Shown here one piece after another: positions 875-56,893 of a stretch of 64,000 bases of DNA. Under the pieces are notes generated by a model. That model ran no database searches and was not told the DNA's origin. It saw only the letters and a list, made by a program, of their open reading frames with translations. Origin of the DNA: Chiloscyllium plagiosum. Taxonomy: Eukaryota. Positions within the stretch are counted from its first letter, which is position 1. Each line of letters begins with the position of its first letter. The stretch lies in assembly GCF_004010195.1 (NCBI RefSeq), contig NC_057718.1, positions 100,961,637 through 101,025,636 on the forward strand, given 5' to 3'. The position numbers and the translations under genes were made by a program.

Positions 875-996
875 ATTCCTGAAGAAGGGCTTATGCCCGA
901 AACGTTGATTTTCCTGTTCCTTTGATGCTGCCTGACCTGCTGTGCTTTTCCAGCAACACATTTTTAAGCTCTGATCTGCAGTCCTCACTTTCTCCT
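875..996 (+). mobile_element. Short PLE family A pLTR insert with hammerhead core
   Basis: ctgaaga-a-gggcttatgccc-gaaa-cgtt at 879-906. Matches the 3' end of the GIY-YIG-bearing copy at 8123-8740. Degenerate TSD acaagagcaacatt/acaagatcagcatt. Confidence 0.8.
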
Positions 997-1104
997 ACAA
1001 GATCAGCATTGGCAAGATCAACATTATTTGAAGTTAGAGAGTCCATTCACCTGTCTGATAACGGCTGGGAAGAAGCTGTTCCTGAAACTGCTGGTGCTTG
1101 GTGA

Positions 1105-1291
1105 TGGAAAAGCACAGCAGGTCAGGCAGCATCTGAGGAGCAGGAGAATCAAAGTTTTGGGCCATAGCCCTTCATCAGGAAACAGCTTATGCCTGAAACG
1201 TCGATACTCTTGCTCCTCGGATGCTGCCTGACCTGCTGTGCTTTTCCAGTAACACACTCTTGAGCCTGCATCTGTAATCCTCACTTTCTCC
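1105..1291. mobile_element. Fold-back PLE family A element
   Basis: Arm 1105-1180 is the reverse complement of arm ~1185-1248. Flanked by gatggaa on both sides. Confidence 0.8.
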
Positions 1292-2622
1292 GGATGGAAG
1301 AGGTTGTAGGAGAGCATTGCCGGGGTTTGATGGGACTTTGATGATGTTGGTGGCATTTCTGTGGCAAGAAGCTGTGTAAATAGAGTCTGTGGGTGGAAGT
1401 TTGGCTTCCATGATAGATGGGCTGTGCGCATCACCTTCTCTCGGTTCTTATGGTCCTGGGCAGAGCAGTTGCTGCACCAGGCCGTTATACCACCCAGACA
1501 GTATGCTTTCTGTTATGCGTCTGTTGTAGTTTCAGGTGCTTTGAAAGGTATTGACCACAGCATGGTACCTTTTTGCATCTACTTTGAGCTTTTAACTTGC
1601 TTGCGATATGCTGTACATCTCTATGACTCTATTTGACTTGACATTCTGTCTCCTTGCATCTTCCTATTGAGTTGTCGTGTAGAGGAGGGAGCCAATGGCA
1701 GTAATCAAGCACTGTTGTGAAGTTTTAAAGAAGAAACCCTCTGTCGGTAATGATTGACTGAACAAGACATGGAAGCAGTTGCAGCATCCAGCCTGGATAA
1801 ATAGAAGAGGAGGTTAATGGCTTTCTATAGCGGGGGAGTAAAACTGACCCTGGAGTTCCAAACCCACTCATTATCAGCAGAATCTTGGCAGAGGTCAAAA
1901 CTCTCAGCGTGATTTGCCACAGGCTAGTCGAATCAGGCAAGTTCCCAAATTTCTAAAATGTTGGAACTCTCGTTTGGCTGCTTTTGTTTCTTTTGTGCAG
2001 ATCCCCTTGTGATGTTCAGTGACATTCCCATAGCTTGAAAAAAAAATACGAGGCGGCACGATAATTATGTCATGGGTTCACAATGTGGAAATTATTACTG
2101 ACTCAGTAAGTGGAGAAGGGATTGAGCACCCGAAGGTTAAATTTTTGTACTAAAGATCACAAAATTCTAACTACAAAGAGCTTTGGACTCCAAAGTGAAA
2201 TTTACACTCTGAAGTGTAAGCGGCCCTCTCTCAGTCATGAAAAGAAAATGAATTTCTAAGCTTGCCAGATGTGTACAATGTCAATGTAGAACTTGAATTA
2301 GTGCAAAGTAAAGTAAGTTGTCAGAGAGAATTTTTTTTTACTTGATTAAGATAATTGTGTATTTTTATGATCATTACTGGAGTGAAACAGGGCCCTTAAT
2401 TTGAGAACATTAAATGCTCCAATTTCACCCTTTTGGGACACCGATCATTTGATGCAAACTTGCAGTTTGACCACAGAAGCTAAGACTCCTGCTGTAATGC
2501 CCTGTATATCTTAATAGATCAGTCAACATTCTTCAGAGGCTAGGAATTCTTCAGCGAGTAACTTACATCCTAACTCCCCAAAGCCTACCTAAAATCTGCA
2601 GGAAGTATGATGGAATACTCTT

Positions 2623-3344
2623 AGTTAAAAATCACACAGTACCAGGTTATAGTCCAACAGGCTTAATTGGAAGCACACTAGCTTTCGGAGCGTCGCTCCT
2701 TCATCAGGTGGTAGTGGAGGGCTCAATCCTAACACACGGAATTTATAGCAAAAATTTACAGTGTGATGTAACTGAAATTATACATTGAAAAATTGATTGT
2801 CTGTTAAGCCTTTCATCTGTTAGAATACAGTGATAGTTTCACTTCTTTCATGTGTAAATCACAAAACCCTTTTTTTTAAAGTTGCATTCTTGGGTTAGCT
2901 GTTAATAATGGTGATAGCTAGACAATATGTCGAAGGTGTTAGCCCCCTGTGTAAGTCTGTGAAGGGGTGCATGTGTGAGTGTGGGAATGTGTGTGTCTGT
3001 AAGAGTATGTGTGGGTGTCTGTGTATAGGAGTGCCTGTGTATGTGTGAGCGTGTGTGTGTGTGTGTGTGTGTAGGAGTATCTGTGTGTGTGTGTATAGTG
3101 CAATGGTGGTCACCTGTAATGTGACATGAACCCAAGGTCTTGGTTGAGGCCCTCCCTATGGGTACCGAACTTAGCTATCAGCCTCTGCTCGGCCACTTTT
3201 CGCTGCTGCCAGTCCCGATGTCCGCCTTGGGAGGATGGTCACCTGAAGGTCCGAGGTCAAATGTCCTGGACCACTGAAGTGTTCCCCGACTGGAAGGGAA
3301 CACTCCTGTCTGTTGATTGTTGTGCGGTGTCCATTGTCATAGTC
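2623..3344 (-). mobile_element. Penelope-like element family B, 5'-truncated, with GIY-YIG C-terminus and intact hammerhead
   Basis: 12-bp TSD tggaatactctt (2611-2622, 3345-3356). Minus strand reads RTTINRQECSLPVGEHFSGPGH...QRLIAKFGTHREGLNQDLGFMSHYR*. GT-rich 3' UTR. Confidence 0.9.
2676..2710 (-). ncRNA. Minimal type I hammerhead ribozyme motif (PLE family B)
   Basis: Reverse complement: cac CUGAUGA a ggagc gac gcucc GAAA gc UA gug. Stems I and II pair perfectly; stem III is the palindrome AGCU. Confidence 0.75.
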
Positions 3345-3571
3345 TGGAATACTCTTGGCTTCCTAGATGGGTACAGCTCTAACACTCAAGAAACTCAATG
3401 TCATCCAGGACAAAGCAGCTCATTTGATTGGCACAACGTTCACTCCCTTAAAGGTCCAGCCTAATGCACAGTGGCAGCACAGTACCATCTCCCAGGTGCA
3501 TGTAGCAACCTGCCAAAATTCCTTTGGCAGCACCTTGAAAACCCACAATCTCTACCACTTAGAAGCACAAC

Positions 3572-3926
3572 AGCAACATGGTGGCTCAGTGGCTAGCACT
3601 GCTGTCTCATAGCGCCAGGGACCCAGGTTCAATTCCAGCCTCGGGTGACTGTCTGTGTGGAGTTTGCACATTCTCCGTGACTTTATGGATTTCTTTTGGG
3701 TGCTCTGGTTTTCTCCCACAATCCAGAGATGTGCAGGTTAGGTGGATTAACCATGCTGAATTACCCCATAGTGTTAACGGATGTGTAGGTTAGGTGGATT
3801 AGCCATAGGGAATGCAGGGCTTCAGGAATTGGATAGCGGGGGGGTGAGTCTGAGTGGGATGCTTTTCGGAGAGTCAGTGTAGACCTGTTGGGCCAAATGG
3901 CCTGTTTTCTCACTGTTGGGATTCCA
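3572..3926 (+). mobile_element. HE1-type tRNA-derived V-SINE
   Basis: A box tggctcagtgg, B box ggttcaattcc, V-domain gtggagtttgcacattctcc, CR1-like tail. Confidence 0.9.
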
Positions 3927-6965: not shown

Positions 6966-8122
6966 TTGATTTGAATTTCGTGTCATTAGACTAATTACAT
7001 TAATTTATTTAATATATGCAGTAGTGGATTAGGTGAACCAGTTTGATCCTAAAAGTGTTAACACCCATAAAATTCGTAACTTCTAATGAGCTTCATTAAT
7101 TTCTTCATTTGCACTCCTCTTTAGCTGACAGTATGTTCACTTTCTGCTTCTATTATTTACTTGTGGTCAACATTTTGTTTCCACAATGGGCTCATTTTCC
7201 ATGTAATTTGAAACGAACTGAAGAATGAAGTGTTAACATTTTAACCATTACCTCTTCAGTTCAATTCCGTGTTAGTTTGCTCTGAAGGTACTCGCGCTGG
7301 GGGTACAGTTAACATAAGAACGAGGAATAACAGTAAGCCATTTAGTCCCTCCAGCATGCTCCACCATTTAATATGATCATGGTTGATCTTATCTCAGACT
7401 CAACTCCAGTTTTCTACCCACTCCCCATAACCCTTTAACACATTACTCATTAAAAATTGCCGTGTCCCCTCTGTAAATTTATTCTGTGTCCACCATACAC
7501 CAGGTAATCAATTGCACAGAATCACATCCATTTGAGGGAAATAATTTCTCCTCATTTCTGTTCTAAATCTGCCACTCCTAAAACAATGAACTCTCATTCT
7601 AGATTGCTCCACAAAAGGAAACATCCTTCCTATATCTACTTCGTAAATCCCCTTAAGCATCTTGTATACCTCAATTAAATAGAGTCATAGAGTACAGCAC
7701 AGAAACAGACCTTTCGGCCAGACCATCCGTGCCAACCGGATATCTTAAGTTAATCTAGTCCCACCTGCCAGCACCCGTCCCATATCCCTCTAACCCATCC
7801 AGATGCCTTTTAACTGTTGTAATTGTACCAGCCTCCGCCACTTCCTCTGGCAGCACATTCCATACACACACCACCCTCTGCATGAACAAGTTGCACCTTG
7901 GGTCTTTTTTAAATCTTTCCCCTCCCACCTTAAACCTATGCCCTCTAGTTCTGGACTCCCCCACCCCAGGGAAAAGACCTTATCTTTTTATCCTATGCAT
8001 GCCCCTCATGATTTTATAAACCTCTATAAGGTTACCCTTCAGCCTCCGACGCTCCAGGGAAAACAATCCCAGCTTATTCAGCCTCTCCCTGGAGCTCAAA
8101 CCTTCCAACCCTGACAACATCC

Positions 8123-8740
8123 GCTGCACCTGATGTCGCCTCCTATACACTGGGGAGACAGGCCGCCTACTTGCAGAACGTTGCAGAGAACACCTCTGGG
8201 ACACCTGGACCAACCAACCCAACCGCCCTGTGGCTGAACACTTTAACTCCCCCTCCCACTCCACCAAGGACATGCAGGTCCTTGGCCTCTTCCATCACCA
8301 GACCATAGCAACACGACGCCTGGAGGAAGAGCGCCTCACCTTCCGCCTAGGAACCCTCCAACCACAAGGGATGAATGCAGATTTCTCCAGCTTTCTCATT
8401 TCCCCTCCCCCCACCTTTTCTCAGTCCCAACCCTCAGACTCAGCACCGCCTTCTTGACCTGCAATCTTCTTCCCGACCTGTCCACCCCCACCCCCTCTCT
8501 GGCCTATCACCCTCACCTTAACCTCCTTCCACCTATCGTATTCCCAACGCCCCTTCCCCAAGTCCCTCCTCCCTATCTTTTATCTTAGCCTGCTTGGCAC
8601 GCCCTCCTCATTCCTGAAGAAGGGCTTATGCCCGAAACGTCGATTCTCCTGCTCCTTTGATGCTGCCTGACCTGCTGCACTTTTCCAGCAACACATTTTT
8701 AAGCTCTGATCTCCAGCATCTGCAGTCCTCATTTTCTCCT
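8123..8740 (+). mobile_element. Penelope-like element family A: GIY-YIG fragment, 3' UTR and pLTR
   Basis: TSD aacatcc (8116-8122, 8741-8747). Peptide LYTGETGRLLAERCREHL...PVAEHFNSPSHS...FRLGTLQPQGMN. Hammerhead at 8614-8641. Confidence 0.9.
8611..8644 (+). ncRNA. Minimal hammerhead ribozyme motif (PLE family A)
   Basis: uuc CUGAAGA a gggc uuau gccc GAAA cg UC gau. Palindromic ACGU stem III; stem I is weak (2 bp). Confidence 0.6.
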
Positions 8741-9752: not shown

Positions 9753-10287
9753 TACTTAATAAGGAACCAAAATTAAATGGTGTCTTTGCCTGCCCATGCG
9801 CGCTTCACTATAGCTCACTGGATCTAACCCGTGGTGGGGGAATGGGGAATATGTTTTGTTATTTTGGTCAGTGGTGAACCTGAAGAAGTGATTCTGCATG
9901 CATTAGATTTTGCCTTTGACTATGGGGCCTTTAAAAGGCTGAGACAAGTGAGTCTTGCACCTGATTTGTTCAAGATTGTGGTGCACGTTGGGCAATGTGT
10001 GCTCCTTTATGTTCCTGGCAGCCACCTACCCCACACTCTTTCCAGAAGGCAGTTGAGGCGAGAAGTTGGCTGAAAATTCCGGAATCCGAGAGGGCTATGT
10101 TTTCTTTCCGAGCCAGGAATTGTAGAACCAAGGTGGGTAAATGGTGAACCAATCAGCCATAATCCAATCATGGCAGGAACAGGCCGGAAAGGCGCATGAG
10201 TGGATGGGTGCTCTTGTAGGTCATCAGATCATCCATGATCTCTTTGAATGGCAGAGCAGACTTGATGGGCCAAATGGCCTCCCTTTC

Positions 10288-10410
10288 GGAGAAAGTTAGG
10301 ACTGTTGATGCTGGAGATCAGGAGGGCCTTATGGCCGAAATGTCGATTCTCCTGCTCCTTGGATGCTGCCTGACCTGCTGTGCTTTTCCAGCACCACGCT
10401 TTTTGACTCT
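10288..10410. mobile_element. PLE family A fragment (inverted plus direct pLTR pieces) after a CR1 fam-2 tail
   Basis: ggagaaagttaggactg...ctggagatca followed by cttatggccgaaatgtcgattctcctgctcc. Confidence 0.7.
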
Positions 10411-11964: not shown

Positions 11965-12100
11965 GTTTTGAGGAAGGGTCACCAGACCTGAAACATTAAC
12001 TCTGATTTCTCTCTGCAGATGCTGCCAGACCTACTGAGCTTTTCCAGCAACTTCTGTTTTTGTTTCTGATTTCCAGCAGTTGCAGTTCTTTCAGTTTTTA
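11965..12100 (+). mobile_element. PLE family E pLTR fragment with degenerate hammerhead
   Basis: ttgagga-a-gggtc accagacct-gaaa followed by gatgctgccagacctactgag. Related to 34885-35112. Confidence 0.6.
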
Positions 12101-12220
12101 TTTATGTTAACCTGTAATGGAGCAAACACTTTCTTCCCAATACCTTGTGCAAAACATCTGACTCTTTTAAGCTACCAGTGTTTAAAAATAATACTATTGT
12201 TACCTATATCCAAACTTTTT

Positions 12221-12490
12221 ATGATTTGGAGGTGCCAGTGTTGGACTGGTGTTGACAGAGTTAAAAATCACACAATGCCAGGCTATAGTCCAACAGGTTT
12301 ATTTGGAAGCGCTAGCTTTCAGAGCGCTGCTCCTTCATCAGCTCATTCCATGCACGCACAACCCGCTGCATGAAACAAATTAAGTACCGTTCCTACTTGC
12401 AAACTGTCGTTATCTGCTGTTCAATCCATATAACAATCCATACAACCACCTGATGTAGGAGCGGCGCTCCGAAAGCTAGTGCTTCCAATT
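12221..12490. mobile_element. Fold-back PLE family B element with captured local sequence in the loop
   Basis: Minus-strand pLTR 12221-12342, plus-strand pLTR 12443-12490. Loop 12339-12428 is an inverted copy of 11464-11553. Confidence 0.85.
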
Positions 12491-16545: not shown

Positions 16546-16973
16546 CCCAACCTCTTCCTTCCTATGCCTAGTGATTTTGTTGGAATAGTCAGTGTTACAA
16601 CATGGCACTGAACCCTTCTGTTAATTAAACCCAAACACCCAGAAAAAACTCACCTTGCCTCATAATCTGTTATGAGAACTCTCAAATTCCACTATTTAAA
16701 GAAAATAATATCAATTTATTCTTTAACTCTAAAAGCAAACAGTAAACAACAACTATTCAAAACTCTAAGCCCCTTTTCTCTGAACTGCTTATTAGCTGCC
16801 TCCAACTCTATAACAACATGCTGTTCCAATAAGACACTTATTAAAATTATATCAACTTCATTTCAAAACCACACAGCAGCTGTTGTCTTTGGTGTCTGTC
16901 ATCTTCCGACTGAAGATCTCCCTGCATCATCGTCTGTCTTTTTTCAGTGAATATGTTTCATATGAAAAGGTAC

Positions 16974-17719
16974 GTTGTGGTTCTGTTCGCCGAGCTGGGA
17001 ATTTGTGTTGCAGACATTTCGTCCCCTGTCTAGGTGACATCCTCAGTGCTTGGGACCCTCCTGTGAAGGGCTTCTACCATACATCAAGAGCATTTCCGAA
17101 CTGACAGCCAGACTACGGGCGACCATTAGGACTCATAACAGCACACAAACTAACAGCCACTCTCAGACAACAACTCACCAGGACGAAGGACCCGATACCT
17201 AGCATGAGCAAAACCAATGTAGTGTACAAAATCCCATGCAAGGACTGCACAAAACACTACATAGGACAAACAGGAAGACAGCTAACGATCCGCATCCATG
17301 AACACCAACTAGCCACGAAATGACACGACCAGCTATCCTTAGTAGCCACACACTCAGATGACAAGCAACATGAGTTCGACTGGGACAACACTACTATTAT
17401 AGGACAAGCCAAACAGAGAACAGCCAGGGAATTCTTAGAGGCATGGCACTCATCCACTGATTCAATCAACAAACATATCGACCTGAACCCAATATACCGA
17501 CCACTGCAGCGGACAGCTGGAACTGACAATCGGAAGCGGCAGATACAAATCACTATAAATGCCGGAGGAAACATCACAAAAGTGCTTCACAGGAGGCTCC
17601 CAAGCACTGAGGATGTCACCTAGACAGGGGACGAAACGTCTGCAACACAAATTCCCAGCTTGGCGAACCAAACCACAACAACGAGCACCTGAGCTACAAA
17701 TCTTCTCCCAAACTTTGAT
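16974..17719 (+). mobile_element. Penelope-like element family D: inverted 5' pLTR, GIY-YIG fragment, 3' pLTR
   Basis: 13-bp TSD tatgaaaaggtac (16961-16973, 17720-17732). Peptide NVVYKIPCKDCTKHYIGQTGRQLTIRIHEH. Confidence 0.92.
17604..17643 (+). ncRNA. Minimal hammerhead ribozyme motif (PLE family D)
   Basis: gca CUGAGGA u gucaccu agac aggggac GAAA cg UC ugc. Antisense copy at 17010-17049. Confidence 0.75.
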
Positions 17720-18119: not shown

Positions 18120-18530
18120 TTTGTTTTTCACTTACTCATTCAGAGGATGTAGGCATCACTGCCTAAACCAGCATCCGTATTTGCTTTTGAGAAGGCGCTG
18201 TTCAGTCACAGCAGTACTTGGGGTGTTAAGAATACCCAACGAGCTATTAGGCAGGGAGTTCCAAGATTTTGACCCAGCAATAATGAAGAAGCAATAATAT
18301 GGTTCCAAATCAGGATGTGATTTGGAGGGAAACCTAAAGGGTTAAAAATCACACAACACCAGGTCCAACAGGTTTATTTGGAAGCACTAGCTTTCGGAGC
18401 GCTGCTTCTTCACCAGGTAGCTGTGGAGTATAAGATCGTAAGACACAGAATTTAAAGCAAAACCTAAAGCGGATGGTTTTGTCATGGATCTGCCACCCTT
18501 GACCTTCAAGATGGTGGTTATTGGCAGAGA
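18120..18530 (-). mobile_element. CR1 fam-3 3' remnant interrupted by a PLE
   Basis: gggagttccaagattttgacccagc...ttccaaatcaggatg matches 57310-57525. Confidence 0.6.
18340..18459 (-). mobile_element. Short PLE family B insert
   Basis: 10-bp TSD aaacctaaag (18330-18339, 18460-18469); degenerate hammerhead. Confidence 0.85.
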
Positions 18531-21124: not shown

Positions 21125-22625
21125 TGGGCACAGTTGAAATGGGGAACTTATTCAAGTTGATGAAGGCTTATGTTAGGATGTGATGACTCAGGACGCTTGA
21201 GAGTTACGAATTAGCCAGGAAAGATGGAAATAGAAAGCTAAGAAGGGGCCATGAGAAGTTGTTGGCAGATGGGATCAAGGAAAACCCTAAGGCTTTCTTT
21301 GGTATATCAGGAATAAAAGAATAACTAGAATAAGATTAGAGCCAATCAAGCGTAGTAGTGGGAAGTTTTGCGGGGAGTCAGAGGAGATAAGGGAAGTGCT
21401 AAATGAATACTTTTTGTCAGTATTCACACTAGAAAAAGACAATGTGGTCAAGCAGAATATGAGATGCAGGTTACTAGACTAGATGGGATTGAGGTGTGCA
21501 TAAGGAGGAGGTATTAGTAATTCTGGAAAGTGTAAAAATAGATACGTCCTCTGGGCCAGACAGGACTTATCCTAGGATTCTCTGGGAAGCCAGGGAGGAG
21601 ATTGCAGAGCCTTTAGCTTTGATCTTTTAACCCTACTGCGAATCCTCTTGCAAGGATGCCTGCCTTGAAGAGGTTTTCCTCCTCTCTCTACAAGAAAACC
21701 ACCTATCCACTCCACTCTCTCCTCCCTGACCTATCACCTTCATCTCCTCCCCCACTCACCTATTGTACTCTATGCTACTTTCTCCCCACCCCCACCCTCC
21801 TCTAGCTTATCTCTCCATGCTTCAGGCTCTCTGCTTTTATTCCTGATGAAGGGCTTTTGCCCGAAAACTTGGATTTTGCTGCTCGTCGGATGCTGTCTGA
21901 ATTGCTGTGCTCTTCCAGCACCACTGATCCAGAATTTATGTTGTCATTGTCTATTGGAATAATGCCGGAAGACTGGAGGATAGCAAATGTTGTCCCCTTG
22001 TTCAAGAAGGAGAGTATAGACAACCCTGTTAAACAAAGACCTGTGAGTCTTACTTTGGTTGTGGGTAAAGTGTTGGAAAGGATTCGAAGAGATAGGATTT
22101 ATAATCATCTAGAAAGGAATAAGTTGGTTAGGGATAATCAACATGGTTTTGTAAGGGTAGGTCGTGCCTCACAAATCTTACTGAGTTCTTTGAGATGGTG
22201 ACCAAACAGGTGGATGAGGGTAAAGCGGTTGATGTTGTGTATGGATTTCAGTAACGCGTTTGATAAGGTTCCCCATGGTAGGCTATTGCACAAAATATGG
22301 AGGCATGGGATTGAGGGTGATTTGGCGGTTTAGATCAGGCTGAATAGCATTAAATTAAGCATAGCTTTAAATTGAGTGGTGATAGATATAGGATTGATGT
22401 CAGAGGTAGTTTCTTTACTCAGAAAGTAGTAGGGGCGTGGAATGCACTACCTGCAACAGTAGGAGACTCTCCAACTTTAAGGGCATTTAAATGGTTATTG
22501 GATAGGCATATGGATGAGAATGGAATTGTGTAAGTTAGATGGGCTTCAGATTAGTTCCACAGGTCAGTGCAACATTGAGGGCCGAAGGGCTTGTACTGCG
22601 CTGGAATGTTCTATGTCTATGTTCT
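21125..22625 (+). mobile_element. CR1 LINE ORF2 remnant (internally deleted), interrupted by a PLE
   Basis: PEDWRIANVVPLFKK...RPVSLT...QHGF; tail ctatgtctatgttcta. Confidence 0.85.
21625..21934 (+). mobile_element. PLE family A-related insert
   Basis: ctgatgaagggcttttgcccgaaa at 21843-21866. The CR1 resumes at tttatg. Confidence 0.8.
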
Positions 22626-27059: not shown

Positions 27060-27330
27060 AATTGTGGTGTGCAGTGAGAGAGGGACTCACTGAAATCCTT
27101 GTAGAGGGAGGAAGAGAGCTTCTTCAAGGAAGGCGTCCTTGCAAGAGGATTTGCAGTCGGTTAAAATCTTCTCGGAGATAGTGAGGACTGCAGATGCTGG
27201 AGATCAGAGCTGAAAATGTGTTGCTGGAAAAGCGCAGCAGGTCAGGCAGCATCCAAGGAGCAGGAGAATCGACGTTTCGGGCATGAGCCCTTCTTCTTCC
27301 TGAAGAAATATGAGGGGGAGGGTGGGGGTG
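27060..27330 (-). mobile_element. PLE family A pLTR plus adjacent element sequence
   Basis: Reverse complement of 8620-8740 and of 21625-21692. Confidence 0.8.
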
Positions 27331-28908: not shown

Positions 28909-29285
28909 GATGTGAAGGTGCCGGTGTTGGACTGGGATGGATAAGGTCAGAAGTCACATGACATCAGGCTATAGTCCAACAGGTTGGGCGGCACGGTGGC
29001 ACAGTGGTTAGCACTGCTGCCTCACAGCGCCAGAGATGTGAAGGTGCCGGTGTTGGACTGGGATGGATAAGGTCAGAAGTCACATGACATCAGGCTATAG
29101 TCCAACAGGTTTATTTGAAATTGCAAGCTTTTGGAGCACTGCTCCTTTGTCAGGCGAAGCGAGAGAGAATCACACAGACACAGAACTTCTAGGCAGAGAG
29201 ATCAAAAGATCATAGAAATGGTGTGACTGGAGTGTCGACAGGCTGAATAATAAGTCTCTGTGGGTGATCAAAAGTGTCAGATGAG
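28909..29285 (-). mobile_element. PLE family B remnant with an exact 77-bp duplication around an HE1 head
   Basis: 28909-28985 = 29035-29111; insert 28986-29034. Confidence 0.75.
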
Positions 29286-33580: not shown

Positions 33581-33642
33581 AATTCATCAGCTGGTGAACA
33601 TCTGAAGCTAATTCATCAGCTGGTGAACATCTGAAGCTAATT
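33581..33642. repeat. Exact 29-bp tandem duplication
   Basis: aattcatcagctggtgaacatctgaagct x2. Confidence 0.95.
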
Positions 33643-34110: not shown

Positions 34111-34884
34111 TCTCTCCTGCTCTCGCCATCTGTGTGCATTGGGAAGATTTGCAGATTAATGCTTTGACTGTCTGGCCATGTTATGAATGCATCTTCTTAA
34201 GACACTGAACCGTGAAGTGGGATTCAAACCTGGGGCCCCTGGCTCAGAGGCAGCAGCACTACCCATTGAACCCCAATTAATTCTGGTTGATAGTGCATAA
34301 ATTTGAACTGCAATCTCATTATTGTCCAGCAGTGTTTGGTTGTTAGTCAGGTAGTGATGGCAGAAAAACTGGGCGAGTGGTGTCACCTCATATGCTATTG
34401 AGAAGTCATAACAGTTTTTCTTGAATGCAGTGAAAACTCCCTGAGTTGGCGAGTGCGTGCATGTTCTATATTTTGAAACTCTGTCCAAACACAGCTTAAA
34501 CTGATTGCACTGAGTGACTTTAATCTAACTCTGGTCTCTATGTTTTGCCTACTGTTGAATAAAGCAGCTTACTAACGGAATACAATAACACTTTGCCTGG
34601 CTTTAACTGGGCACACCATTGCAGAGATGACAGGAGATCAGGAGATCCAATCAGGATTTCGATCAGGTCTCATTGTTACATTCTCAGCTGGCAGATATAA
34701 GGTGATGAGAGTCAGCATCTCCGCATAAAACAAATCGGCAAGCAGAAAGGCAGATTATAAAAGGGAATTTGCAGTTTGAGGAATATTGATTGTCCAACTT
34801 TCATTTTTCCCATCTAACAACAGAAACTAATCGGCTTTGAAACACATTTGGCCGTTTTGCGAACCTGATAGGGGTGGCCAATGA

Positions 34885-35112
34885 AACAAACACAGAGACT
34901 TCTAGACAAACTCAGCAGATCTGGCGGTATTGGTGGAGAGAGAAACAGAGTTAATATTTCAAGTCCAGTGTAGACTTCTCTTTAGTGTCATACCAGACTC
35001 AACTTGTTAACACTATTTTTCTCTCTCCACAGATGCTGCCAGAACTGCTGAGTTTCTTCAGCATTCGTTGTGTTTGTTTCAGATTTGTAACATTCGCAGT
35101 ATTTTGCTTTCA
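34885..35112. mobile_element. Fold-back PLE family E element
   Basis: Arm ~34885-34960 is complementary to ~35005-35080. Confidence 0.7.
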
Positions 35113-35745
35113 TTTGAAGGATGATAAAAGTGCATCTTTCTTTTGGTTTCTGACTGAAGTTCTCTTTCTGCCTGCCCCTCCTGCACTCCTCTCATTCTGG
35201 TCTTATGTCCCTCCTTAATGTTTGGCTTGGTACTTGCACTTGGCTCCCTTACATAAATCTGTATGGTGGATACTGAAATTTTATTGGGTTTTTTTGTCAG
35301 ACGTTGGATTGCATTTAGTCTTTATCTCTTCCTCCAGTTCCACCCCCAGTCATGGGTTTCTTTCTGAGGAAGATGAAAATCCTGACATGGAACTGTGAAA
35401 GTCAGCTTATATCTCCCTGTGTAAGAACATACAGTTGACCGTTTTTGAATGCCAGTACTTGTGACCTGGTGAAGAGGCAAAATGTTCCAGAGCTCACTGT
35501 CTTCCTGGAGGATTCCAGAGTATTGTCAAGAAACTAATGTGATGCCCCTATTCAAGATGGGAGATTGACAGAAAGCAGGAAACGATAGGATGGTTAATCT
35601 AGCTCTGTTGGTAGGAAAATACTAGAGTCCATTACTAAAGAAGAAATGGCAGCACTTTTAAAGTAGGGATGTCATGTTACAACTGCACAGGGTGTGGGTG
35701 CAGCTGCACCTGGAGTAGTGCACATAGTTTTGGTCTCCTGTATTT

Positions 35746-38534: not shown

Positions 38535-38670
38535 GATGCACAAAGTCAGAAGTCGCACCGCACCTGGTTTATTTGAAATCACAAGCTTTCAGAGCACAGC
38601 TCCTTCTTCAGGTTCACTTCCAAAAGCTTTGTGATTTCAAATAAATCTATTGGGCTATAACCTGCTGTCA
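38535..38670. mobile_element. Fold-back PLE family B element
   Basis: ttatttgaaatcacaagctttc...aaagctttgtgatttcaaataaa inverted arms turning at the hammerhead. Confidence 0.7.
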
Positions 38671-40290: not shown

Positions 40291-40327
40291 TCCAACCAGC
40301 ACCTCTGCATCATTGCACAGTGGCAGC

Positions 40328-41330
40328 AACCTCTTCCTCCAACCGTCGTGTTGCCATGGTCTGGTGATGGAGGAGTCCAAGGACCTGCATGTCCTTGGTG
40401 GAGTGGGAGGGGGAGTTGTAGTGTTGGGCCACGGGGTGGTTGGGTTGGTTGGTCTGGGTGTCCCAGAGGTGTTCTCTGAAACGTTCTGCAAGTAGGCGGC
40501 CTGTCTCCCCAATATAGAGGAGGCCACATCGGGTGCAGCAGATGCAATAGATGGGACCTTGGAGGGAAGTAAGGGGGGAGGTGTGGGCGCAAGTTTTGCA
40601 TTTCTTGCGGTTGCAGGGGAAGGTGCCGGGAGTGGAGGTTGGGTTGGTGGGGGGTGTGGACCTGACGAGGGAGTCACGGAGGGAGTGGTCTTTTCAGAAC
40701 GCTGATAGGGGAGGGGAGGGAAATATATCCCTCGTGGTGGGGTCCGTTTGGAGGTGGCAGAAATGACGGCGGNNNNNNNNNNNNNNNNNNNNNNNNNNNN
40801 NNNNNNNNNNNNNNNNNNNNNNNNNNNNNNNNNNNNNNNNNNNNNNNNNNNNNNNNNNNNNNNNNNNNNNNNNNNNNNNNNNNNNNNNNNNNNNNNNNNA
40901 GGATGGGAGGTGGTGTAGTCCAGGTAGCTGTGGGAGTCGGTTGGTTTGTAGTAGATGTCCGTGTTGATTCGGTCGCCTGAGGTAGAAATAGATAGGTCGA
41001 GGAAGGGGAGGGAGGAATCTGGGACTGTCCAGGTGAATTTGAGGTCGGGGTGGAAGGTGTTGGTGAAGTGGATGAACTGTTCAACCTCCTCGTGGGAGCA
41101 CGAGGCAGCGCCGATACAGTCATCGATGTAGCGGAGGAAAAGGTGGGGGATGGGGCCAGTGTAGCTGCGGAAGATGGACTGTTCCACATGTCCTACGAGG
41201 AGGCAGGCAAGGACCGCAATTTCCCCCCAGACGTGGTCGACGATGCCCTCCACCGCATCTCTTCCACTTCCCGCTCCTCCGCCCTTGAGCCCCGCCCCTC
41301 CAACTGCCACCAAGACAGAACCCCACAGAA
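40328..41330 (-). mobile_element. Penelope-like element: RT (YIDD) and GIY-YIG remnant with an inverted internal segment (+, ~41208-41330); N gap 40773-40899
   Basis: LFLRYIDDCIG...FHPDLKFTW...LPFLDL...TDIYYKPTDSHSYLDY. The GIY-YIG part matches 8123-8340. Confidence 0.9.
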
Positions 41331-41973: not shown

Positions 41974-44437
41974 CAGCATGGTGGCTCAGTGGTTAGCACT
42001 GCTACCTCTCAGCGCCAGGGATGTGGGTTCAATTCCACCCTCAGGAACCTGTCTGTGTGGAGTTTACATGTTCTCCCTGTGTTTGCGTGGGTTTCCTGCA
42101 GATGCTCCAGTTTCCTCCCGTGGTCCAAAGATGTGCAGGTTAGGATGGATTGGCCATGGGAAATGCAGGATTACAGGGATTGGGTGGGTTTGAGTGAATT
42201 GAATTGAAATGGATTGAATTTATTGTCACGTGTGCTGAGGCACAGTGAAAAGCTTTGACTTGCGAGCAATGCAGGCAGATGACAGAGTTAAATAGCATCG
42301 ATAGGTAAATAGTAGGTAAACAGCAACAAAAACAAAAAAAACACAGGTACAGGCAAATGTTAAGAGTTTGTGAATCCATTCAGTATTCTAACAACAGTAG
42401 GGTAGAAACTGGTGCAAAGCCACCTCGTGCATGTGTTCAGGCTTCTGCACCTTCTCCCCGATGGTAGAGATTGTAGAAAAACATTGCCGGGATGGGATGG
42501 ATCTTTGAGAATGCTGGTGGCCTTTCTTTGACGGCGGGTCTGGTAGATGGATTCTATAGATGGGAGGTTGGCCTTTGTGATTGTCCGGGCCAAGTTCACC
42601 ACTCTCTGTGACCATCTCTGTTCTTGAATGGTACAGTTACCATACCAGGTACTGATACATCCAGACAGAATGCTCTCAATGCGCGCCTATAAAAATTGGC
42701 AAGGGTATTCGCCGTCATGCCAAATTTCCTCAGCTGCCTGAGAAAGAAGAGACATTGTTTGGCCTGTGTAACCAGTCCGAAGAGTCCAAGAGAGCTTGTT
42801 GTGGATGCCCATTCCCAGGAGCTTGACACTCTCCACTCATTCCACCTCTGTGCTGTTAATGTGTAGGGGGGCTTGAGTAACATCCCGCCAAAAGTCAATA
42901 ATGAGTTCCTTGGTTTTGCTGGCATAAAGAGCTAGGTTGTTCTCAGTGCACCATTTTCCAAGTCTTCCACCTCCCGTCTATAGTCTGTTTCGTCACCATC
43001 TGAGATTCGACCGACTATGGTGGTGTCATCAGCGAACTTGTAAATGGCATTAGTCTGGTATTTGGCAACGCAGTCATGGGTATATAGTGAGTACAGTAGG
43101 GGGCTGAGTATGCCCCTGGAAGGCTCCAGTGTTGAGTGTTAGTGAGGATGAAATATTGTCCCCAATCTTCACTGATTGTGGCCTGTGTGTCAGGAAACTC
43201 AGGATCCAGTTGCAGAGAGTGGGGCTTAGTCCGAGATCATTAAGTTTAGTTATCAGTCTCGAGGGGATAATAGTGTTGAAGGCTGAACTGTAGTCAATGA
43301 GTAGGATTCTTACGTAGCTGTTCTTGGTGTGAAGATGTTCTAGGGAGGAGTAAAGGGCAAGTGACATGGCATCTGACATGGATCTGTTAGTCTGATAGGT
43401 AAATTGGAGTGGGTCAAGAGTTGATTAATGCCATGACCAGCCTTTCAAAGCACTTCATGACCACCGAAGTTGGGGCCACTGGCCGGTAGTCATTGAGACA
43501 TGCTGCATGAGTCTCCTTAGGCACAGAGATGATGTTGGCCCTCTTGAAACAGGCAGAGAGTGTCCTACTGCAGGGAGAGGTTGAAGATGTCCGAGAAGAC
43601 CTCTGCCAGTTGATCTGCACATGCTCCATGTGCACGGCCTGGTACTCCGTCTGGTCCCATTGCTTTCCTTGGATTCACATGAAGGAAAACTGATCTGACC
43701 TCTGATGCAGTGACTGTTGGGATAGGTTCATCAGGACATGTCGGAATAGATGTTACCTCCCTGCCGAAATTCTGCTCAAAGCGAGCACAGAAGGCGTTGA
43801 GACAATCTGGGAGGGATATTCCATCATCTGCTATCTTGCACTGTCTCTTTTTAGAACCTGTGATGTCATTCAATCCTTGCCATAGTCGCTGGGTGTCTGT
43901 CTGGGTCTCTAGTTTGGATCGGTCTTGGTCCTTGGCTGTCTTCATGGCTCAGCGAAGGTCATACTTGGATTCTTTATATTTGAGTGGGTCTCCTGATCTG
44001 AAGACCTCACACCTGGTGTTTAGCAGGTTCTGTATGTCCTGATTCATCCAGGGTTTCCTATTGGGGAACACCCGGATTGACTCCCTCGGTATGCAGTCCT
44101 CCACACACTTGCTGATAAAGTCTGTGACTGTGTTGACGTACACGTCCAAGGTACGTGCAGCTTGTTTGAACACGGCCCAATCAGCCGATTCCAGACAGCA
44201 CCAGAATTGATCCTCTGCCTCCTTCGACCAACACTGGACTAGTATCTGCGAGGGGGTCTCCTGCTTGAACTTTTGCCTGTAAACGCCGGGAGAAGAAACA
44301 CAGCATTGTGGTCGGAATTCCCGAAATGAGGATGGGGGATGGAGCAGTCGGCATCTTTCACAGTGGGGTACTCTTTGGAGAGTCACTGTGGACTTGATGG
44401 GCCAAATGGCCTATTTCCATACTGTAGGGGTTTTATG
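41974..44437 (+). mobile_element. HE1 SINE split into 41974-42195 and 44362-44437
   Basis: Collinear HE1 halves, with agtg repeated at the break. Confidence 0.85.
42196..44361 (-). mobile_element. Rex1/Babar LINE, 5'-truncated (~2.2 kb), RT pseudogene
   Basis: [59 protein letters not shown]; (attca)n 3' tail; several frameshifts. Confidence 0.9.
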
Positions 44438-44809
44438 AATATTTATCGCTCAGTCAGCAAGGTGACCATTATCAAAGAACAGGATTGTGTGACATTGCTG
44501 AGTTTGAGCTAGCTGCAATATTTCCTACATTACAGTTGTAGCAACATTTCAAACATGTACTTCATTGGCTGCAGAGCCCTTTGACATGGCTGGTGTTCGT
44601 GAAAGCTGCTGTTAAATGTAAGTTTTTGTTTCTTGTCTCTCTAGAAGAATACTTATCCAGCACTTGATCTTTCGACAGTCATTTAAATCTCCACACTGTA
44701 CTACTGCTGAAGGAGACTCCAAATGATGAATAACATTTTCAAGCTGTGCAGTGCGCTTGCGTTTGAAGTCACAAGATGTAAAAAGGTTGTCCTGCTGGCT
44801 ATACAAACT

Positions 44810-44975
44810 GGACAGGCAGGAGGCTGGAAGAACACAGCAAGCCAGGCAGCATCAGGAGGTGGAGAAGGGTTGCATCCAAAACATCGACTTCTCCACCTCC
44901 TGATGCTGCCTTGCTTGCTGTGTTCTTCCAGCCTCCTGCCTGTCTACTTTGGATTCCAGCATCTGCAGTTTTTCA
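44810..44975. mobile_element. Fold-back PLE family C element
   Basis: 44810-44867 is the reverse complement of ~44888-44945. Confidence 0.8.
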
Positions 44976-45119
44976 TTTTGTCTCTGCTAGATATATAGGT
45001 GGGAATATATCCTTGTTCAATATCTTGTTGCTCAAATTAAGCCACAAATTTGATGTTGCTCGTCAATGGATAACAATCTTACTGTTAAGCTCTGGACTGG
45101 AGCCTTGCCTCTTGAGACT

Positions 45120-45981: not shown

Positions 45982-46289
45982 CATAATGTCTCAGAGTCAA
46001 AGGAACTAAAAATGCGAATGTTAATCTCGAGTCAAATCCATTTGCTCTTTCTATTAGTTCAGTTTGATGCTGAAAACCAGGAAATGTCTTAATGCAACCT
46101 ATTGTTTGCTGTGTGTGAATTGGCCAGGCGTTTCCCATAATGTCTCAGAGTCAAAGGAACTAAAAATGCGAATGTTAATCTCGAGTCAAATCCATTTGCT
46201 CTTTCTATTAGTTCAGTTTGATGCTGATAACCAGGAAATGTCTTAATGCAACCCAATGTTTGCTGTGTGTGAATTGGCCAGGCGTTTCC
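45982..46289. repeat. 154-bp tandem duplication of unique sequence
   Basis: 45982-46135 vs 46136-46289, 3 substitutions. Confidence 0.95.
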
Positions 46290-46952: not shown

Positions 46953-47015
<63 letters not shown>

Positions 47016-47234: not shown

Positions 47235-47930
47235 GAAAATAAAGAGGGCAGCAACATTCAGCAGTCCAAGAATGGCAGGAAAGAAGCTGTTCTTGAACCT
47301 GTTGATATGTGTGTGTTCAAGCTTCTGTATCTTCTGTCTGGCAGAAGAGATTGGAAGAGAATATTGCTGGGGTGGGAGGGGTCTTTGATGATGTTGGCAC
47401 CTTTCCGCGGCAATGAGCCGTGTAAATGGAGTGCGTGGGTGGAAGGAGAGAGTGATGACTGCAGATGCTGGGGAGTCAGAGTCGAAAAGTATGGCACTGG
47501 AAAAGCACAGCAGATCAGGCAGCATCTGAGGAGCAGGACAGTCAAAGTTTGGAGCATCAGCCCTTCATCTGGATGAAAGACTTGTGCCTGAAACATTGAC
47601 TCTCATGCTCGTTGGCTGCTGCCTGACCTGCTGTGCTTTTCCAGCACCGCACCTTTGATGCAGTGGCTTCCATAAGTTCTGGGCTCTGCACATCACCTTC
47701 TGTATATTGTTACGGCTCTGGGCAGAGCAGTTACCACACCAGACCATTATGCATCTGGACAGAATGCTTTGTAAAAGTTGGTGAGGGTTTTATGGACAAG
47801 CTGAATTTCTTAAGCTTCCTAAGGAAGGAGAGGCGTTGTTGTGCCTTCCTGACCATTGCATCTATGTGGGGTGGTCCAGGACAGATTGTTGGTATGCATC
47901 GCTCCTAGAAACATGACGCTCTCGATCTCC
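47235..47930 (-). mobile_element. Rex1/Babar 3' fragment containing a fold-back PLE family A insert (~47445-47657)
   Basis: KGANIIKDPSHPSNILFQSLLPDRRYRSL; inverted arms ggaaaagcacagcag / ctgctgtgcttttcc. Confidence 0.8.
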
Positions 47931-52430: not shown

Positions 52431-52668
52431 TTAACTCCATTAGTAGATTTTTCTATTCCGTTCACGCTCACATGTTATCTGTGTTTCCATTATGTGCATA
52501 ATTGCTTTACGCCTCAAACACTTCCTGTGGTAACAAGTTCCATGTTCTTTTTAGGTCGAGAAATTTCATTCCCTATTAAACTTATCCCCTAATTAAGGTC
52601 CTTGTTTTTGGGTCTCCTACTGGTGGAGAGACCTCTGTGTCTACACCAACAGTATCTTTAAGAATTGT

Positions 52669-52922
52669 CATGATTTGGAGATGCCGGTGTTGGACTGGGG
52701 TGTACAAAGTTAAAAATCACACAACATCAGGCTATAGTCCAACGGGTTTAATTGGAAGCAATAACTTTCAGAGCGATGCACCTTCATCAGGTGGTTGTGG
52801 AAAATAAGATTACAAGTTCTGTGTTATATACCACAACCACCTGATGAAGGAGCGGCGCTTCGAAAGCTAGTGCTTCCAATTAAACCTGTTGGACTATAAC
52901 CTGGTGTTGTGTGATTTTTAAC
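52669..52922. mobile_element. Fold-back PLE family B element with 12-bp TSD
   Basis: TSD tttaagaattgt (52657-52668, 52923-52934). About 90-bp inverted arms 52708-52800 / 52831-52922. Confidence 0.9.
52838..52872 (+). ncRNA. Minimal hammerhead ribozyme motif (PLE family B)
   Basis: cac CUGAUGA a ggagc ggc gcuuc GAAA gc UA gug. Confidence 0.72.
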
Positions 52923-52981
52923 TTTAAGAATTGTGCATTCTTCAACGAAATCATCCCTTATCCATCGAAACCTTGGAGAAT

Positions 52982-53402: not shown

Positions 53403-53520
53403 AGATATTTTCCAATCAACCTGCTCAGAGATGTTATGACCCACCTCTGGATCAGGTGGACCTTGAACACAGGCCTCCTGCTCCAGAGGTAGTGGCACTC
53501 CCATTGTGTCACAAAATCCT
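53403..53520 (-). mobile_element. Short (~120 bp) tRNA-derived SINE-like repeat
   Basis: Minus-strand A box tgacacaatgg and B box tgttcaaggtcc. Similar copies at 48478-48590 (+), 34155-34270 (-) and the split copy 29287-29860 (+). Confidence 0.55.
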
Positions 53521-53671
53521 TTCAAGACCACTGTATCCTTCCTTAGTTAAGATAACCAAATCTCAGCACAGGTCAACGTAAAAGACATGGAAGAGCTCAG
53601 GAAAGTAAAATCAAAAGCATGTGAATTGCTGCTGAATTGCTAAGATTATAAAATCTAATCCAGTTTTGTTA

Positions 53672-54135: not shown

Positions 54136-54929
54136 AGTGCCATCTGTAGCAGTTTATAGCGGTATCAGCAGTGCAAATACAAAGAATCCTTTGGCATGGT
54201 TCCATAACTTGAAGCATTTGTATTCTAAAGATAGGTGGTAGTGCGAGATCTCCACTTGATTATCATTGGTGAAGATCACAGCAACTCAGCTTTTAGAGCC
54301 AATATCTGTCAGTGTTTTCCTCATCAATTCTGTGGAAATCCATGTTCAGGAATCAATCCATGCATCGGATGGGAGGTGGAGGGGAAAGGGGAAAACTACT
54401 GTTTTAAATAGCCTGGAATCAAATAGCGTGTGTGTCTTTCTGATTCCTCATTTCACTTTTACAGTCTCTCATGAGGGAGCTGGCAAAAAAACTGTTTATT
54501 CAATGTAATGCTTTCATTCATAAATAAAAAATGGCTTGTAGATATCCACGCAGTGTAGGGAATTCTAATGAGTTTCTCTTTGTAAAGTACAAGTCTGATT
54601 GCTTTATTTATTTATGCTAAGAAGACGGCTGAGTTTGTCTGCTTGTAATAAAAGGGTGTTTAAGTGTAACCAGAGTAGAGTTTGAATGTTGAGATCAATC
54701 ATTACTCCTTTCCAGTTTCTGAATGCATGGTATTTAGCAAATGAAGTCATTGTGAAATATGATTTCAGGTTATATTTTCCAAAAAAAAACCTTCTGTCGG
54801 TAGGTTGTGCTGTGGATTTCATCCTTAGACCTTCTGTGTTAGTGTTTGGAAAGCTGCCTCCTTGCCTTATCTTTGCTTGGTCAAAAATCAGACGAGGTCA
54901 GGTTATAATCCAACAGATTTATTTGAAAT

Positions 54930-54964
54930 CACGAGCTTTCGGAGCGCTGCCCCTTCCTCAGGTG
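54930..54964 (-). ncRNA. Minimal hammerhead ribozyme motif (PLE family B variant)
   Basis: Reverse complement: cac CUGAGGA a ggggc agc gcucc GAAA gc UC gug. Confidence 0.7.
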
Positions 54965-55105
54965 AAGTGAGGGAGAAGCGCACAGGCACAGAGTAAATAG
55001 GCAGAGAGATCAATGGCGAGGGAGATCAAAAGATCAAACAAATGATGTGAGTATAATGTTGACAGGATGAATAATAGGTCTCTGCAGGTGATCTAAAATG
55101 TCAGA

Positions 55106-56705
55106 AGAAAGATACTAAATGAGTTTTTCATCAGTATTTGCTGTGGAAAAGGATATGGACGATATAGACTGTAGGGAAATAGATGGTGACATCTTGCAAA
55201 ATATCCATGTTACAGAGGGGGAAATGCTGGATGTCTTGAAACGGGTAAAGGTGGATAAATCCCTTGGACCTGATCAGGTGTACCCTAGAACTCTGTGGGA
55301 AGCTAGAGAAGTGATTGCTGGGCCTCTTGCTGAGATATTTGTATCATCGATAGTCACAGGTGATGTGCCGGAAGACTGGAGGTTGTCTAACGTGGTGCCA
55401 CTATAAAGAAGGGTGGTAAAGACAAGCCAGGGAACTATAGACCAGTGAGCCTGACGTCAGTGGTGGGCATGTTGTTGGAGGGAATCCTGAGGGACATGAT
55501 GTACTTGTATTTGGAAAGGCAAGGACTGATTCGGGATAGTCAACATGACTTTGTGCGTGGGAAATCATGTCTCACAAACTTAATTGAGTTTTTTGAAGAA
55601 GTAACAAAGAGGATTGTTGAGGGCAGAGCAGTAGATGTGATCTATATGGACTTCAGTAAGGCCTTCGGCAAAGTTCCCCATGGGACACTGGTTAGCAAGG
55701 TTAGACCTCACGGCATATAGTGAGAACTAGCCATTTGGATACAGAACTGGCTCAAAGGTAGAAGACAGAGGGTGGTGGTGGAGGGTTGTTTTTCAGACTG
55801 GAGGCCTGTGCCCAGGGAGTGCCACAAGGATCGGCGCTGGGTCCTCTACTTTTTGTCATTTACATAAATGATTTGGATGCGAGCATAAGAGGTACAGTTA
55901 GTAAGTTTGCAGATGACACCAAAATTAGAAGTGTAGTGGACAGCGAAGAGGGTTACCCCAGATTACAACCGGATCTTGACCAGATGGGCCAATGCGCTGA
56001 GAAGTGGCAGATGGGGTTTAATTCAGATAAATGCGAGGTGCTGCATTTTGAGAAAGCAAATCAGAGCAGGACTTATACACTTAATGGTAAGGTCCTAGGG
56101 CGTATTGAGTACAGGAGTTGGGAGGTCATGTTGCGGCTGTACAGGACATTGGTTAGGCCACTGTTGGAATATTGCGTGCAATCCTGGTCTCCTTCTTATT
56201 GGAAGAATGTTGTGAAACTTGAAAGGGTTCAGAAACAATTTACAAGGATGTTGCCAGGGCTGGAGGATTTGAGCTAAAGGTAGAGGCTGAACAGGCTGGG
56301 GCTGTTTTTCTGCAGCGTCGGAATCTGAAAGATGACCTTGTAGAGGTTTACAAAATTATAAGGGATATGGATAGGGTAAATAGGCAAAGTCTTTTCCCTG
56401 GGGTCGGGAAGTCCAGAATTAGAGAGCATAGGTTTAGGGTGAGAGGGAAAAGATATAAAAGAGATCTATGTAGCAACTTTTTCACACAGAGGGTGGTATG
56501 TGTATGGAATGAGCTATCAGAGGAAGTGGTAGAGGCTGGTACAATTGCAACATTCAAGAAGCATTTGGATGGGTATATGAATAGGAAGGGTTTGGAGGGT
56601 AGCGGGCCGGGTGCTGGCAGGTGGGACTAGATTGGGTTGGGATATCTGGTCAGCATGGGTTGGACCAAAGGGCCTGTTTCCATGCTGTACATCTCTTTGA
56701 CTCTA
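55106..56705 (+). mobile_element. CR1 (HER1-like) ORF2 RT remnant, 1.6 kb, stops/frameshifts, internal deletion near 56100
   Basis: PEDWRLSNVVPL, GKSCLTNLIEFF, IYMDFSKAF, GVPQGSALGPLLF, SKFADDTKI. Confidence 0.93.
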
Positions 56706-56761
56706 TATGAGTAAAGTCAATAAGGATGGTAAGCAAGATAATCGACTTTTCAGGTATAAGC

Positions 56762-56893
56762 CATTCCTGATAAAGGGCTTATGCTCAAAATGTTGATTCT
56801 CCTGCTCCTCAGATGCTGCTTGACCTGTTGTGCTTTTCCAGCGCTACCCTTTTCAACCCTGACTCTTCAGCATCTGCAGTCCTCATTTTCTCC
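56762..56893 (+). mobile_element. Short PLE family A pLTR insert
   Basis: Starts attcctgataaagggcttatgctc (degenerate hammerhead) and ends ttttctcc. Confidence 0.8.

Follow-up and report, generated by a model that had tools for sequence, protein, structure and literature searches.

Predicted minimal hammerhead ribozymes in the pseudo-LTRs of several Penelope-like element families of a carpet shark

Judged by its sequence, a 64,000-nucleotide stretch of the genome of the carpet shark Chiloscyllium plagiosum (contig NC_057718.1; hereafter the window) carries motifs that are minimal type-I hammerhead ribozymes of the pseudo-LTRs (pLTRs) of several Penelope-like element (PLE) families. This supports what an initial annotation had proposed, namely minimal type-I hammerheads with a self-complementary stem III in PLE pLTRs of several families in a shark host. 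Very probably, these hammerheads are kept in the source elements, carried along by reverse transcription and left behind as inert, neutrally decaying stubs. Since the cores in the window fit the minimal hammerheads that Cervera and De la Pena described in 2014, we regard them as an ordinary shark case of a known class.

All seven cores named in the initial annotation were present: 879 and 8614 in family A, 2676, 52838 and 54930 in family B, and 17604 and 17010 in family D. In each of these stretches (7/7) CUGANGA is followed by one extra base, stem II, GAAA, two bases and UH, and the type-I core order (C3 U4 G5 A6 N7 G8 A9 ... G12 A13 A14 A15.1 ... U16.1 H17) was found. A strict descriptor scan returned ten perfect cores in the window, five on each strand, nine of them with at least two stem I pairs; the three beyond those named earlier lie at 21843-21870 (+), 12313-12341 (-) and 38583-38611 (-). 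In 20 dinucleotide shuffles we obtained 0-1 perfect cores each (4 in total) and 0-1 cores with at least two stem I pairs each (2 in total). Ten perfect cores against 0-1 per shuffle rule out a chance origin. The marks of a canonical hammerhead (a 6-bp helix I, a stable helix III and an Rfam match) were absent, helix I having 0-5 bp and helix III two pairs without a loop in the 19 tabulated copies. An Rfam scan of the window with E values up to 10 gave 61 matches, none of them a hammerhead; the top matches, microRNA models lying on inverted repeats, were all under the gathering score and were rejected as hairpin artefacts.

Profile searches found about 30 arms, which fall into five related families, A to E; the earlier figure of about ten degenerate copies was too low. 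Because a MAFFT alignment of 14 cores shifted family B by one column, pair counts were anchored on the core. An extra unpaired base between A9 and 10.1 is present in 19/19 tabulated copies, and pair 10.1-11.1 is G-C in 14, G-U in 4 and A-U in 1. As had been claimed, the pair table shows that stem II stays paired though its sequence changes from family to family: helix II pairs 2-4 have both bases exchanged between families A, B, D and E, a compensatory change, and pairs of stems I, II and III are all altered on both sides between families. The description of stem III as a 4-nt element also held. Of helix III there remains a palindrome at 15.1-16.1, which reads ACGU in families A and D (at 879, 8614 and 17607) and AGCU in B (three copies), with AUGU in the antisense D copy (at 17046); pair 15.2-16.2 is Watson-Crick in 12 of the 19 copies, wobble in 3 and broken in 4.

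These features were compared with those of the minimal hammerheads of metazoan PLE pLTRs, as given in the accessible parts of PMC4209133. Shared with them are the type-I core, the extra base 9/10.1, the G10.1-C11.1 pair, the palindromic 15.2-16.2 without loop 3, the short helix I, the presence of several consensus families per genome and the predominance of single or opposite-strand copies of truncated PLEs. Helix II differs, with 4-6 bp in the shark copies versus 7-8 bp in Schistosoma, and the sequence families of the shark are new relative to that paper, whose accessible main text and two of three supplementary files name no sharks. Within the accessible literature, taken outside Repbase, Dfam and subscription journals, searches on sharks with hammerhead ribozymes and on Penelope with Chiloscyllium gave no catalogue of such families. 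The shark families may thus be uncatalogued, within a class that is known across vertebrates; as it stands, the finding adds shark families to the class described in 2014 and has little impact. Dimer dependence of the shark cores would follow from the literature on this class, dimer cleavage being the result of Lunse et al. as cited in the accessible part of PMC6765202.

Remnants coding for a GIY-YIG endonuclease lie upstream of A, B and D cores on the same strand. In the family A copy at 8119..8740 (+), a remnant (8119-8454) leads through a pyrimidine-rich pLTR to a perfect core (8614-8641) and a tail ending at 8740. Its endonuclease piece is 91% identical in DNA to that of a remnant at 40313..41250 (-) with PLE reverse transcriptase (RT; YIDD motif), cysteine-rich linker and GIY-YIG (Pfam E 2e-4), to which no hammerhead is attached. 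In this A-linked remnant the linker precedes GIY-YIG (40313-40693) as in Neptune-clade PLEs, a placement by this motif alone, a Zn-finger-like linker being described for Neptune in the accessible part of PMC8557442. Used as a query against the sequences in PDB, the endonuclease linked to family A gave 0 matches. The link of family B to an endonuclease is weaker: adjacency and a weak match (tblastn E 6e-4; translation) suggest that a frameshifted C-terminal GIY-YIG remnant (3300-3120, -) belongs to the B pLTR end at 2620..2716 (-), whose perfect core from the strict scan (2679-2707, AGCU) lies about 400 nt downstream at 2707. The window holds no intact PLE with RT and GIY-YIG in a single ORF, only broken or truncated remnants; database relatives carry both in one frame.

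Family D is represented by a whole insertion at 16974..17716 (+) between 13-bp target-site duplications at 16961 and 17720. It comprises an inverted pLTR arm (17068-16974, core 17013-17046), the end of a GIY-YIG ORF (17105-17620), a second core (17607-17640) and a tail. Its protein shows 91% identity over 167 aa to P0004, a shark protein bearing RT and endonuclease, and 96% identity to a Chiloscyllium punctatum protein. The ORF end overlaps the core, and this preceding ORF stops in loop II. Family D resembles Poseidon PAc of Anolis carolinensis (Frangieh et al. 2024, PMC11167929) in several respects: stem II opens with an ATG (28 nt before the cut site, versus 26 nt in PAc), two 3' ends delimit a tail, the inner of these ends has an AC-rich stretch, and the cut site stays intact in insertions; it differs from PAc in that the previous ORF enters the core. 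PAc has been studied in vitro, whereas family D is known here from sequence alone, and the D ATG may be a real translation start.

Besides the copy at 8119..8740 and the stub with tail at 875..996 (+; strict scan and profiles; perfect core 879-906), family A comprises a pLTR at 21701..21925 (+), whose perfect core (21843-21870) has lost the stem III palindrome (AACU), a copy at 27166..27312 (-) with a micro-inversion (27285-27312) over the CUGA part of the core, and a 3' stub without hammerhead at 62394..62463 (+). Its head-to-head pairs lie at 1099..1292 (1181-1099, -, no tail, G12 lost; 1185-1292, +, tail, 5' part of the core missing), 10285..10410 (10321-10285, -, tail only; 10320-10410, +, core damaged), 47444..47657 (47574-47444, -, tail; 47572-47657, +, no tail; joined at the core CUGA) and 56732..56894 (56763-56732, -, short; 56763-56894, +, tail, G8 and G12 lost). 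Family B forms pairs at 12221..12490 (12341-12221, -, tail, perfect core, no stem I; 12442-12490, +, A9 changed), 38545..38668 (perfect core 38583-38611, -; partial arm 38619-38668, +) and 52670..52925 (52799-52670, -, tail, stem I broken; 52831-52925, +, perfect core 52841-52869), the last between 13-bp target-site duplications at 52656 and 52922. Further single B copies on the minus strand are a stub with A6 changed to G (18338..18462), a copy with a damaged core whose 3' end is directly duplicated (76 bp) around a SINE-like piece (28910..29284) and a subfamily copy with a 4-bp stem I (54878..55110, perfect core 54933-54961). Family C consists of a head-to-head pair with damaged cores (44790..44982) and a second copy at 300-396, and family E of a stub with an A-related 3' part (11967..12107, +; core 11968-11997, C3 changed to U) and another head-to-head pair with damaged cores (34882..35115).

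Families A-D thus provide nine head-to-head insertions, eight of which have a one-sided tail. The marks of endonuclease-bearing (EN+) PLE insertion, an inverted 5'-truncated pLTR copy and a 30-40 nt tail on one arm, were found, with 13-bp target-site duplications around 2 of the 13 units tested and none clear in most others; head-to-head pairs, one-sided tails and duplications are likewise described in the accessible parts of PMC8557442 and PMC3846280. It is extremely unlikely that the short copies are instead a non-autonomous retrozyme or SINE-like family spreading as cleaved circular monomers. Many are indeed 80-130 nt long with similar ends, and retrozymes are reported in one chondrichthyan genome in the accessible text of bioRxiv 2026.07.22.740005, where the non-LTR retrozymes also combine type-I hammerheads with short PLE-derived vertebrate repeats. 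Those retrozymes form tandem arrays, however, while the shark copies are dispersed or inverted stubs, and none of 16 tandem-repeat rows contains a core. Moreover, the copies form a continuum with longer ones that are linked to endonuclease sequence, no permuted monomer begins at the cut site, and inverted pairs with one-sided tails are a PLE signature.

Differences shared between copies were 0/185 in the core versus 42/808 downstream, although counted by site (0/20 versus 15/84) this reaches only p=0.07. Private changes were 6/185 in the core versus 28/808 downstream, with a base-matched expectation of 5.0 in the core, and 26/260 in the hammerhead outside the core (stem II, loop and N7), more than in the core itself; these counts exclude the duplicated B end (28910-28985) and include arms of one insertion, which are not independent. 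G12, which lies inside a CpG, is changed in 5/21 copies, and none of the 11 catalytic positions differs from one family or subfamily to another. The expected excess conservation of the core was therefore found for differences inherited from source elements, but not for private changes, which run at the background rate. Together, these two results point to selection on the source elements and neutral decay of the copies, so that one window shows ribozyme selection acting in the former and absent from the latter. As the D core overlaps the last ORF codons, coding may add to its conservation.

In active source elements the motif would be kept by selection and most likely cleaves slowly, which according to the literature may occur as a dimer via the 4-nt self-complementary stem III, be aided by the element's protein, or both; the related Anolis hammerhead needed PLE protein to cleave (PMC11167929). 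The PLE RT would begin copying 40-100 nt downstream from the cut, either internally or where the tail ends, and its template would be RNA that is intact or has been religated at the cut site, which would explain why the motif is carried in almost every short insertion. The copies in the window decay neutrally, fastest at CpG, as dead-on-arrival stubs, and presumably do nothing for a host gene.

Arm ends were examined in 26 arms with boundaries set by hand, some automatic 5' boundaries being inflated by partner arms; the count leaves out 27298 because of its micro-inversion, the three family E arms, which lack a reference upstream, the family C copy at 300-396 and the B end duplicated at 28910-28985. 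The cut site is spanned by 23/26 arms and none begins at it, which fits the finding that unprocessed RNA is the main template of the Anolis PLE (PMC11167929). In addition, 12/26 arms, from either start site, have their 5' end at the 5' edge of the hammerhead (-8..+10 of C3), compared with about 2 expected under exponential truncation. The accessible literature outside Repbase, Dfam and subscription journals gave no account of arm junctions at a PLE hammerhead.

The clustering and the lack of arms beginning at the cut site would suit a motif that is hammerhead-shaped but acts in the source as a protein-binding, translation-start or RNA-pairing signal marking RT stop or arm joining, rather than by cleavage. 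In A and D the motif contains an ATG whose frame, unless the copy is damaged, has no stop before the tail ends, and core mutants had no effect on Anolis PLE insertion in vitro (PMC11167929); both point the same way. We nevertheless find this distinctly unlikely: catalysis predicts that the catalytic positions stay unchanged across families and between subfamilies, as 11/11 do; cleavage, with C3/G8 rescue, is documented for the Anolis motif (PMC11167929); and the clustering, based on hand-set boundaries, can arise from short inverted words around CUGA, as in the micro-inversion at 27285-27312. Also unlikely is the conjecture that the hammerhead 5' edge is a hotspot of RT stops and of arm joining. 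In its boldest form, the family-specific stem III palindrome would dimerise two pLTR templates for a dimeric PLE protein that primes from both DNA ends. If true, this would account for the inverted stubs, for tails on one side only and for the intact copied cut site, and the minimal hammerhead would then be a structural part of the transposition process. The role of the hammerhead in transposition is still an open question in PMC11167929 and the accessible part of PMC8557442. A shark genome as rich as this one in short insertions suits that question well, and counting could put it to the test, should the 5' ends and the junctions of inversions truly concentrate at the ribozyme.

Stem II of core 879 folds in context (probability 0.99); stem I of family A has only 2 bp and folds poorly (pair probability 0.02-0.2). 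In several head-to-head insertions the partner arm hides the core, the antisense arm leaving unpaired probabilities of 0.04 at 52841 and 0.0 at 17607. ACGU and AGCU cannot pair with one another, and the two free + strand ACGU copies lie 7.7 kb apart. We consider it very unlikely that a copy or copies have been co-opted by a + strand host gene, cutting or regulating its pre-mRNA. Five perfect cores on the + strand, the folding of stem II at 879 and an excess of T over A in 8/8 bins outside repeats, which hints weakly at + transcription by the known link between skew and transcription, speak for it. Against it, private core changes are at background, the perfect cores show no strand bias, 52841 and 17607 are buried, 21843 lacks the palindrome, and the remaining palindromes are mutually unpairable or far apart. 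Nor was a host exon found, either among 355 frames scanned against Pfam, where all hits with E < 0.001 were retroelement pieces, or in a rough splice-site scan with approximate weights, which gave eight weak candidates. The assignment of the window to a host intron was consequently not confirmed, and a meaning of motif density for such an intron is not supported, given the 5:5 strand ratio, neutral decay and several buried cores. The amniote intronic hammerheads HH9 and HH10 are single-copy loci with complete stems that host selection conserves; the shark copies have in common with them a type-I core in vertebrate non-coding DNA, but are repeat-borne, minimal and decaying.

The initial annotation had named seven hammerhead cores in families A, B and D of the pseudo-LTRs (pLTRs) of Penelope-like elements (PLEs), and the sequence matched its transcription at all seven. 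Using a strict descriptor (CUGANGA, stem II, GAAA-NN-UH), we found ten perfect cores in the window, five on each strand, against 0-1 per shuffle in 20 dinucleotide shuffles; three of them (21843, 12341 and 38611) were absent from the earlier list. Allowing one mismatch gave 17 cores versus 0-6 in the shuffles, so this tier includes some chance matches. Family profiles brought the collection to about 30 arms (an arm being a single pLTR copy of an insertion) across five families, A, B and D plus C and E, the last two resembling A in their 3' parts.

The initial annotation also held that stem II varies between families yet stays paired, and this was upheld, both sides of the pairs having changed. 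Among 19 copies anchored on the core, all carried a single extra base after A9, and pair 10.1-11.1 was G-C in 14, G-U in four and A-U in one. The second pair of stem II is G-C in A and B and U-A in D; the third is G-C in A and E, A-U in B and C-G in D; the fourth is C-G in A, G-C in B and U-A in E. Likewise, the first pair of stem I is C-G in A and B, A-U in D and U-A in E, and the inner pair of stem III is C-G in A and D and G-C in B. These between-family changes are two-sided but come from four lineages only and carry no statistical test. The copies show the four traits listed for minimal hammerheads by Cervera and De la Pena in the accessible part of their paper (PMC4209133). Judged from sequence, the window motifs should work like the PLE minimal hammerhead, all of whose sequence and architecture features they match.

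A retrozyme array was rejected, no core lying inside the 16 tandem rows of the window, and a canonical host ribozyme was likewise rejected. An Rfam scan of the window matched no hammerhead model. No catalogue of the shark families was found in the searched literature, as far as its accessible text extends; a 2026 retrozyme preprint (bioRxiv 2026.07.22.740005), which in its accessible part covers one chondrichthyan, may list related sequences in its supplements.

Across 23 A and B arms, the 11 core positions differed from the family majority less than the downstream pLTR did (11/206 versus 186/1537, p=0.003). We then split changes outside CpG context in 22 arms into private and shared ones, counts that come from few copies with non-independent paired arms, and in which shared CpG changes may be recurrent. 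Changes common to several copies numbered 0/185 in the core versus 42/808 downstream (p=3e-4 by cells, p=0.07 by sites), while private changes were at background (6/185 versus 28/808, with a base-matched core expectation of 5.0). Thus, in the conservation test set by the initial annotation, an excess in the core was found for source elements and not for inserted copies. G12, within a CpG, was changed in 5/21 copies.

Nine insertions in families A-D are head-to-head pairs, eight of which carry a tail (3' extension) of 35-45 nt on one arm only. Since a clear 13-bp duplication encloses the whole pair in 2/13 units tested, a head-to-head pair represents one insertion event. Inverted pLTRs, one-sided tails, junction palindromes and a pLTR containing the first codons of the ORF were all previously published for PLEs (accessible parts of PMC8557442 and PMC3846280). 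The cut site (H17) was spanned by 23 of 26 arms and none began there, in agreement with unprocessed RNA being the main template in PAc, the Poseidon PLE of Anolis carolinensis (PMC11167929, available portion). A long purine/pyrimidine-rich hairpin at 36-133 is probably another inverted pLTR junction; it lies upstream of a family C copy (300-396).

With boundaries placed by hand, the 5' ends of 12/26 arms, starting from either of the two start sites, fell between -8 and +10 relative to C3, where an exponential-truncation null expected about 2; the best 19-nt window held 12 in at most 2/10,000 simulations. Counted by hand per event, the figure was 8/17, and 7/9 for inverted pairs alone. Most simply, the clustering would stem from microhomology or fold-back, for which short inverted words around CUGA offer sites; one family A copy (27285-27312) has an 11-nt micro-inversion spanning its CUGA, with short inverted words at the bounds. 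A bolder reading is a join guided by a ribozyme dimer. Our literature search found no prior report of arm ends or junctions at this hammerhead position.

Folding predictions bear on the capacity to act at this locus. Stem II folded locally in 7/10 perfect copies, and stem I was weak in every one but 54961 and, in part, 38611; in longer context, the antisense arm buried the core at 52841, 12341 and both D copies. The two stem III words, ACGU and AGCU, cannot pair with each other, and the sole free compatible pair on the + strand, 879 and 8614, is separated by 7.7 kb, a distance across which a 4-bp helix is unlikely to matter. Designed dimers of this minimal class cut poorly (PMC4209133; review PMC6765202; accessible text of both). 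The host intron of the initial annotation is a putative one. No host exon was found in the window by comparing 355 frames with Pfam or by a rough splice-site scan. T exceeded A in 8/8 bins of non-repeat sequence, a weak hint of + strand transcription.

As for the carriers, in family A a GIY-YIG remnant (8119-8454) leads into the pLTR bearing the core at 8614. This remnant shares 91% identity with an RT-linker-endonuclease remnant (40313-41250) that has a cysteine-rich linker, a mark of Neptune and Nematis PLEs in the accessible part of PMC8557442. The family A tail end (8700-8740 +, 27140-27200 -) combines a pyrimidine run with a branch-point-like word, and some copies also have AG, an arrangement that looks like a putative 3' splice site. 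5' introns are known in PLEs. Within 62300-62505, a direct repeat flanks a family A stub; it is about 40 bp long, of which 21 bp match exactly.

Family D at 16974-17716 is a single insertion bounded by a 13-bp target-site duplication. Its coding part shares 91% identity across 167 aa with P0004, an RT-bearing protein of 463 aa from Chiloscyllium punctatum, a match that assigns the window to a carpet shark, above species level. Its RT-endonuclease ORF terminates within the ribozyme (17590-17630 +): the last codons cross stem I and the CUGAGGA core, with the stop in loop II, and P0004 has the same terminal residues. The ORF end overlaps, in a different frame, an ATG at the start of stem II that begins a frame open through the tail, a layout much like that of PAc (PMC11167929, available portion); stop-start coupling in tandem copies is possible. 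P0006, a Chiloscyllium punctatum MAP3K7 isoform model in the database, contains a family D endonuclease piece, reflecting either exonisation of a PLE fragment or an error of annotation.

In family B, the core at 2707 has a frameshifted C-terminal endonuclease piece some 400 nt upstream, a weaker link than those for A and D. A SINE-like 5' piece within a family B tail (28910-29111) sits between copies of a 76-bp direct duplication, which is long for a target-site duplication.

Within-window repeats account for 32% of the window. LINE remnants with RVT_1 and ALKBH8_N Pfam matches (42300-44410 -, 55390-56630 + and many shorter pieces), CR1/L2-like by resemblance, make up much of it together with a frequent SINE. 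Two tandem duplications, both near-perfect, of 154 bp (45982-46289) and 29 bp (33581-33642), occur in sequence that is otherwise unique.
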